34,162 bases of DNA from Escherichia coli (GTDB lineage: Bacteria > Pseudomonadota > Gammaproteobacteria > Enterobacterales > Enterobacteriaceae): the NCBI RefSeq assembly GCF_003334315.1, contig NZ_QOWR01000050.1. One strand, given 5' to 3'. Shown in pieces: positions 33,613-34,162 of this stretch (position 1 is the first letter of the stretch; each line of letters opens with the position of its first letter). Both the position numbers and the translations under genes were made by a program. The notes beneath the pieces were generated by a model, which saw only the letters and a program-made list of their open reading frames with translations, was not told where the DNA came from and did not search any database.

Positions 33613-33958
33613 ATGTCTCAAATTTTTGCTTACTGTCGGATATCAACGCTGGATCAGACCACCGAAAATCAACGCCGGGAAATCGAAAGTGCAGGTTTTA
33701 AAATCAAACCTCAGCAAATAATCGAAGAACACATTAGTGGCTCAGCAGCAACCAGTGAGCGTCCTGGTTTTAACCGGTTGCTTGCTCGCCTGAAATGTGG
33801 TGATCAATTGATTGTGACAAAACTGGATCGCCTTGGTTGTAATGCAATGGATATCAGGAAAACAGTGGAACAACTGACCGAAACAGGTATCAGAGTGCAT
33901 TGCTTAGCATTGGGGGGCATTGACCTGACCAGTCCAACAGGAAAAATGATATGATGCA
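33613..33958 (+). pseudogene. pinR: Serine recombinase / DNA invertase PinR, N-terminal ~113 codons only, interrupted by IS1
   Basis: [25 protein letters not shown]… carries the resolvase/invertase catalytic Ser motif (Y-x-R-x-S-x-x-x-Q). The ORF stops at 33952-33954, 4 nt before the IS1 left end; the intact family is ~190-200 aa with a C-terminal helix-turn-helix. Confidence 0.8.
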
Positions 33959-34162
33959 GGTGATGCTGCCAACTTACTGATTTAGTGTATGATGGTGTTT
34001 TTGAGGTGCTCCAGTGGCTTCTGTTTCTATCAGCTGTCCCTCCTGTTCAGCTACTGACGGGGTGGTGCGTAACGGCAAAAGCACCGCCGGACATCAGCGC
34101 TATCTCTGCTCTCACTGCCGTAAAACATGGCAACTGCAGTTCACTTACACCGCTTCTCAACC
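33959..34162 (+). mobile_element. IS1 insertion sequence, 5'-terminal 204 bp (left inverted repeat plus insA 5' part); element continues beyond window end
   Basis: GGTGATGCTGCCAACTTACTGATTTAGTGTATGATGGTGTTTTTGAGGTGCTCCAGTGGCTTCTGTTTCTATCAGC… matches the IS1 left end as I recall it; same orientation as the IS1 fragment at 1-96. Confidence 0.9.
34014..34162 (+). CDS. insA: IS1 protein InsA, N-terminal 49 codons (3'-partial; GTG start)
   Basis: GTG at 34014 then [48 protein letters not shown]…, the zinc-finger N-terminus of InsA. Confidence 0.85.

Follow-up and report, generated by a model that had tools for sequence, protein, structure and literature searches.

A pinR pseudogene at the Rac prophage end of an Escherichia coli lineage, joined to IS1A and carrying a two-base duplication

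The window analysed here is a stretch of 34,162 nucleotides of Escherichia coli DNA that ends inside an insertion sequence, and just ahead of that element lies a short open reading frame resembling the beginning of a site-specific DNA recombinase. The locus raises a question in several parts: which gene this frame derives from, how it came to be joined to the insertion sequence, whether a two-base irregularity close to the join is genuine, and in which order the changes arose. An earlier note, made from the letters of the sequence alone, had proposed that pinR is cut by IS1 next to a small frameshift. The features on which the answers rest are collected in Table 1.

Table 1. Coordinates of features at the pin end of the window, with the sequences found beyond IS1 in complete relatives.
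Feature	Location	Strand	Detail	Basis
Context gene, ynaE/ydfK type	33063..33296	+	Cold-shock gene just upstream of the pin fragment	Gene order as in K-12, HS30-1 and TW01221
pin-derived DNA	33613..33958	+	Codons 1-114 and 2 bases of codon 115, including the 2-base insertion	Alignment to K-12 pinR, NCTC9008 pinQ and HS30-1; PF00239 on identical product; NCBIfam
Residual ORF	33613..33954	+	113 codons and a TGA made by the frameshift; YCRISTLDQ (S11) kept, helix E and HTH absent	ORF list, Gin alignment, Pfam limits
Extra AT	33949..33950	+	ATG-AT-ATG-ATG against ATG-ATG-ATG; equally 33951-33952, a tandem duplication of AT to ATAT	Pairwise BLAST, alignments
IS1A left end, to the window end	33959..34162	+	Terminal inverted repeat at about 33959-33981; insA GTG start at 34014	204/204 against HS30-1 IS1A; PGAP
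Right flank of IS1: truncated tape-measure gene	TW01221, FACU 2024, JX21CE35			
Right flank of IS1: head-gene region	ES6			
Right flank of IS1: next to ynaK	RCAD0514, 30EVA2			
Right flank of IS1: terS	HS30-1			
Right flank of IS1: Qin hokD	2018-11-3CC			

The pin remnant at the right end of Rac

The identity of the fragment follows in the first place from its position. Genes in the window are arranged as ydbK/nifJ-ompN-uspF-ynaM-ynaE/ydfK-pin', the same order as in K-12 (1433084-1436893) and in the annotated relatives HS30-1 and TW01221. In K-12, where this is the right-hand end of Rac, the gene that comes next is pinR, and the fragment is therefore pinR by position. The locus has the marks of the right end of the Rac cryptic prophage, as it adjoins uspF-ompN-ydbK and has ynaM-ynaE-pinR as its terminal genes. 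The proposal that a Pin-family serine invertase stands at the Rac locus is borne out by this gene order, by PF00239, and by alignment to Gin.

The open reading frame ends with SPTGKMI* at a TGA codon (33952-33954), and the Resolvase family PF00239 is on record in a public collection for an identical 113-aa product. Serine-recombinase models of NCBIfam match residues 4-112, all of them under their curated cut-offs, as is expected of a fragment. In full-length K-12 PinR (196 aa), Pfam places Resolvase at residues 4-144 and HTH_7 at 147-190; about residues 4-112 of the former are left. Alignment to the Gin structures 4M6F and 3UJ3 pairs S11 of PinR with the catalytic S9 of Gin (Ala in the 3UJ3 mutant), and puts the break point on the conserved SP(T/M)G motif, close to residue 100 of Gin. 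This is roughly where, presumably, helix E of the family begins. To dimerise and to bind their sites, serine invertases need both helix E and the C-terminal HTH_7.

Of the hallmarks of a serine DNA invertase, the N-terminal PF00239 domain and the catalytic serine are present. Helix E and HTH_7 are missing, with pin DNA ending in codon 115 and followed by IS1, and where an invertible tail-fibre segment would adjoin the gene there is IS1 up to the end of the window. The genes tfaR and stfR adjoin pinR in K-12, and are deleted in every junction-bearing complete genome inspected. Judged by domain content, the remnant is a fragment of a family member rather than a functional invertase, comprising the catalytic core but neither helix E nor the DNA-binding domain. 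The earlier view was sound that the gene is inactive and retains no more of the catalytic domain than its N-terminal part. The feature is an ordinary pseudogene, the front half of the Rac gene pinR, and annotation pipelines already flag others of its kind.

Comparisons with known systems place the fragment more closely. K-12 pinR (b1374, Rac) and its paralogue pinQ (Qin) are near-identical to it over the retained 344 nt and have the same catalytic N-terminus with the serine motif, and the position relative to ynaE-ynaM-uspF-ompN is shared. K-12 pinR is intact, however, with 196 aa and both Resolvase and HTH_7, whereas the window has only codons 1-114 complete and a +2 frameshift. The invertases Gin, Hin, Cin, and Pin(e14) have the same serine-recombinase fold and catalytic serine, and the best solved relatives are Gin 4M6F and 3UJ3 (E ~1e-29, full-length PinR). 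Unlike these, the fragment has neither helix E nor a DNA-binding domain, and in relatives of the window no invertible segment is left beside it.

The pin allele of the window is a mosaic, pinQ-like in having Q3 and GGGGGG and pinR-like in having T at alignment column 280, and the neighbouring gene is named ydfK, not ynaE, by PGAP. Together, the mosaic allele and the name suggest exchange between the paralogous prophage ends of Rac and Qin.

The junction with IS1A and the sequences beyond it

Immediately after the TGA codon come four bases, TGCA (33955-33958), and then the left end of IS1, GGTGATGCTGCCAACTTACTGATTTAG, at 33959, as the earlier note had read it (GKMI*, four bases ahead of IS1). 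The IS1 stretch opens with GGTGATGCTGCCAACTTACTGATTTAGTG. It is identical at 204/204 positions (33959-34162) to the first 204 bases of the 768-bp IS1A of HS30-1, and PGAP annotates an 'IS1-like element IS1A family transposase' in HS30-1 and TW01221 at the same offset as in the window. Both the terminal inverted repeat GGTGATGCTGCCAACTTACTGAT and the GTG start of insA, at offset 55 (window 34014), are those of IS1A. Complete relatives carry the full 768-bp element, the first 204 bases of which are covered by the window.

At the site of the junction, intact pin genes read CAAGTAAT, and K-12 pinR and intact pinQ have the codons GGA AAA ATG ATG ATG CAA GTA ATT TCA GCA. Against the reference pin sequence (...ATGATGATGCA|AGTAATTTCA), the window and HS30-1 read ...CA|GGTGATGCTGCC, with ATGATGCA on the upstream side, and the point of departure lies after the second base of codon 115, at nt 344 of 591. 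The cut had been put at about codon 113 in the earlier note; truncation by IS1 holds, given the 204/204 match to IS1A, but pin DNA extends to codon 115, and codon 113 is where the frameshifted frame stops. It had also been suggested that pinR has a GGTGAT of its own, resembling the IS1 terminus and leaving the junction ambiguous by a few bases. This has to be abandoned: intact pinR and pinQ have AGTAAT here, so GGTGAT (33959-33964) belongs to IS1, and a synthetic query for an intact pin reading CAGGTGAT found none in 5,426 complete E. coli genomes, with best full-length matches of 80/82. On these alignments, the pin|IS1 junction is unambiguous at 33958|33959. A search of the literature at hand found no described pinR::IS1 allele.

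A simple insertion of IS1 normally leaves a 9-bp target duplication, and one possible reading is that the window records just such an event, with pinR resuming beyond the window after the duplication, followed by tfaR and the Rac tail genes. The far end of IS1 does lie outside the window, and simple insertions do occur in pin genes, as in pinQ of strain AW1.7, where both halves are kept. The relatives in which the far end can be read give a different picture. In HS30-1, the left flank of IS1 ends with GATGATGCA and the right flank starts with GGCTTTAAA; in TW01221, the right flank starts with CAACTCAGC, against the same GATGATGCA on the left. The 9-bp duplication is absent from both. All of the junction-bearing genomes inspected (7/7) have other DNA after IS1, without a target duplication and without the 3' half of pinR. 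The earlier note had also left to be checked whether the rest of pinR and of the prophage follow the element; in no complete relative inspected is IS1 followed by codons 115-196 or by the tail-fibre genes. A synthetic query joining the right inverted repeat of IS1 (IRR), GATGATGCA, and the pin 3' part turned up no junction of this kind in 5,426 complete genomes. The same query, used to look for a simple-insertion ancestor, found only AW1.7, in which IS1 lies ~200 nt upstream at another site, and that candidate was set aside. An uninterrupted continuation of Rac beyond the element is, on these grounds, very unlikely.

The absence of a duplication implies a later deletion or rearrangement, and does not argue against the element being IS1. 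Among genomes with the identical left junction, the other end of IS1 abuts at least five different sequences (Table 1). PSS-13 shares the tape-measure right junction, though the 19 records listed for the left junction do not include it. The first four right flanks in the table correspond to deletions of Rac morphogenesis genes that are nested on one side and share IS1 as their anchor. The pinR'-IS1 structure is an IS1-bounded deletion and not a simple insertion; for the window strain this is read across from its relatives, since the window and all draft contigs with its allele end inside IS1.

This arrangement resembles the adjacent deletions that IS1 classically promotes, with one end of the element fixed, far end points that vary (TW01221, ES6, HS30-1, RCAD0514), and no duplication. 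It differs from them in that only end states are seen here, and homologous recombination between two IS1 copies would look the same. Adjacent deletion and IS-IS recombination are the usual reasons for missing target duplications (PMC11708052, a review). The hokD flank in 2018-11-3CC probably arose by IS1-IS1 recombination with a Qin copy.

The favoured course of events begins in an ancestor of the lineage, in which the left end of IS1A became joined to pinR after nt 344 (codon 115). The 3' part of pinR, from the last base of codon 115 through codons 116-196 with helix E and the HTH DNA-binding domain, was lost along with the adjacent tail-fibre and morphogenesis genes. The cause may have been an IS1 insertion followed by an IS1-promoted adjacent deletion, or else recombination between IS1 copies.

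Two further observations concern these relatives. In 2018-11-3CC (locus L012, 2202-3566), where Qin hokD follows the pinR'-IS1 left junction, the arrangement implies that IS1 mediated an exchange of position between Rac and Qin sequences, which may have been an inversion across the terminus. In the same strain and in TBU0218_11-3CC (hits H45 and H46), relatives of window positions 9000-33958, the colinear region is in two pieces and a gene for an MCR-1.1 phosphoethanolamine transferase is annotated under the match, a sign that mcr-1 has inserted into the chromosome near paa-ydbH.

A two-base duplication beside the junction

The references (K-12 pinR, NCTC9008 pinQ, and HS30-1) read GAAAAATG--ATGATGCA where the window reads GAAAAATGATATGATGCA, ATGATATGATG being the reading that marks the +2 allele. 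Pairwise BLAST against TW01221, the closest complete genome, places the additional bases as given in Table 1. The extra AT shifts the reading frame, which brings the TGA at 33952-33954 into play. Without it, the frame reads into IS1 as ...MMQVMLPTY*, giving a product of 121 aa (P0003) that is present on 114 contigs. The alignment to an intact pinR that the earlier note had called for confirms the 2-nt difference beside the junction: the window is +2 relative to K-12 pinR, to pinQ, and to each of the 19 complete E. coli records that share its pin|IS1 junction exactly. That note had also taken MMQV, read in a different frame across the junction, for a motif of the invertase itself. Here, the MMQV reading is partly a coincidence, because the G GTG of IS1 re-encodes the Q and V that pin writes CAA GTA.

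Could the two bases be an error of sequencing or assembly, the true sequence being the allele of HS30-1 and TW01221? None of the complete E. coli genomes of RefSeq, which are mostly long-read or hybrid assemblies, has the +2, and the ynaM-ynaE-pin segment is duplicated in Qin, a kind of duplication that can confuse short-read assemblers. The Qin paralogues examined lack the AT as well, however. The exact 113-aa product is found on 16 contigs read from other assemblies and representing several samples (GCA_004380855.1, GCA_958326205.1, GCA_023276455.1, and SRR16555215), and is filed under E. coli draft assemblies, for example as TFA78924.1, 'resolvase [Escherichia coli]'. All four loci compared from other assemblies (L005-L008) have the extra AT. 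They come from different samples, and 2-3 SNPs set each apart from the window (32888 and 33481 throughout, with 30008 in addition in L007), so that they do not all go back to the same assembly. The two additional bases are real and not an artefact of a single assembly, and error as its source is improbable in the extreme.

A search among complete E. coli genomes gave no 100% match to the window. A Shigella origin, suspected on that account, need not be invoked, since E. coli drafts already account for the exact product. Over the full 34 kb, TW01221 and the window are separated by 9 SNPs in addition to the AT indel. A clustering of differences near the contig end, as from mis-assembly or gene conversion, was considered and ruled out, with the 9 SNPs spread over the whole 34 kb. 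At the other end of the comparison, window positions 1-98 map ~470 bases further on in TW01221, and 97-34162 are colinear. The ~470 extra bases of TW01221 lie in or near ydbD (annotated as a frameshifted DUF2773 bactofilin) and probably reflect variation in repeat number.

Two SNPs are private to the window. At 32888, a G-to-T change converts codon 3 of ynaM from Ser to Ile, and G is found in all ten other loci compared, among them the four +2 contigs, TW01221, HS30-1, K-12, and Qin copies. At 33481, a C-to-T change lies between ynaE and pin, in the presumed pin promoter region, with C in nine other loci; no consequence is expected for a dead gene.

The order of the two changes can also be considered. 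If the +2 came first, pinR would have been dead before IS1 joined it, and the junction genomes without the +2 would be revertants or recombinants. The two changes lie within 9 bases of each other, so that a link to transposition itself is conceivable, although nothing direct points to one. For such an order, exactly these two bases would have to have been reverted or replaced in the far larger set of junction genomes (19 complete records, and 114 contigs with the 121-aa product), and no intact pin with the +2 was found among ~2600 records with a full-length match, of which the best reached 80/82. It therefore carries very little probability.

The +2 is most simply explained as a later mutation in a gene that IS1 had already killed, an order drawn by parsimony rather than from a tree, and it would be functionally neutral because pinR was already truncated. 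In the sub-lineage that includes the window, AT would have been duplicated 7-10 bases upstream of the junction, shortening the truncated ORF from 121 to 113 codons. Slippage in an ATG-ATG-ATG run usually adds or removes 3 bases, unlike the +2 seen here. The pinR'-IS1A allele of complete genomes (HS30-1, TW01221, ES6, RCAD0514, and others) is identical to that of the window in junction nucleotide, IS1 orientation, and upstream sequence, and differs in lacking the AT duplication and in having the 121-aa read-through ORF; PGAP labels it in HS30-1 and TW01221 as 'recombinase family protein, incomplete, missing C-terminus'. Taken as a whole, a history in which pinR became a pseudogene through the IS1 junction and deletion, and only later acquired the AT duplication, is very probably correct.

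Other IS1 events in pin genes and the meaning of the locus

IS1 has interrupted pin genes on other occasions. In an ETEC lineage (99-3165, F5656C1, TW10598, and others; 28 complete records), pinQ has likewise lost its 3' half to IS1 without a target duplication, with the junction after nt 350, 6 bp downstream of that in pinR. There, the locus is Qin, the orientation of IS1 is opposite (the IRR end abuts pin), and the IS1 variant is a different one, ending in GGTAGTGAC; these differences in locus, orientation, and variant mark an independent event. Strain AW1.7 (L010, 1637-3004) offers a simple insertion, in which IS1A divides pinQ at about nt 141 and is flanked by a clean 9-bp duplication, CAGCAACCA. 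The downstream piece of that gene is called an intact 158-aa 'recombinase family protein' by PGAP.

The AGTAAT at pin codons 115-117 (...CA|AGTAAT|T...) resembles the IS1 termini GGTGAT and GGTAAT, and in AW1.7 the element sits immediately before the end-like sequence GTGAGC. Codons 115-117 might, through this likeness, be a preferred target of IS1, which would mean that IS1 recurrently and site-specifically knocks out prophage invertases. Two of the three independent IS1-pin events fall within 6 bp of a 591-bp gene, which on our own rough estimate would happen by chance about 7% of the time. With only three events and a chance of this size, a hot spot is not established, and we regard the proposal as unlikely.

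The gene family, the insertion sequence, and the process are all known, and the AT duplication is the only item specific to the lineage of the window. The pinR'-IS1 locus documents the ordinary decay of a cryptic prophage, by IS1 truncation, strain-variable deletion end points, and a neutral frameshift. Within the lineage that shares the diagnostic pinR'-IS1 junction, the +2 AT is a clean clade-specific marker. For annotation, the entry should read pseudogene, and not a 113-aa 'resolvase' as in TFA78924.1.

The locus also bears on a study of phage sensitivity in K-12. Among phage-survivor colonies, 'mutations' R3Q in PinR and Q3R in PinQ have been listed (PMC11297538, Table 2). Residue 3 is R in K-12 pinR and Q in intact pinQ, which is exactly this pair of changes. 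Since they equal the standing difference between the two paralogues, R3Q and Q3R likely represent cross-mapping of reads or gene conversion, and not new mutations. The same study reports that K-12 deleted for pinR has a 330-fold higher sensitivity to phage T2 (PMC11297538). If that effect holds, strains of the lineage to which the window belongs would be naturally without this function at the Rac locus.
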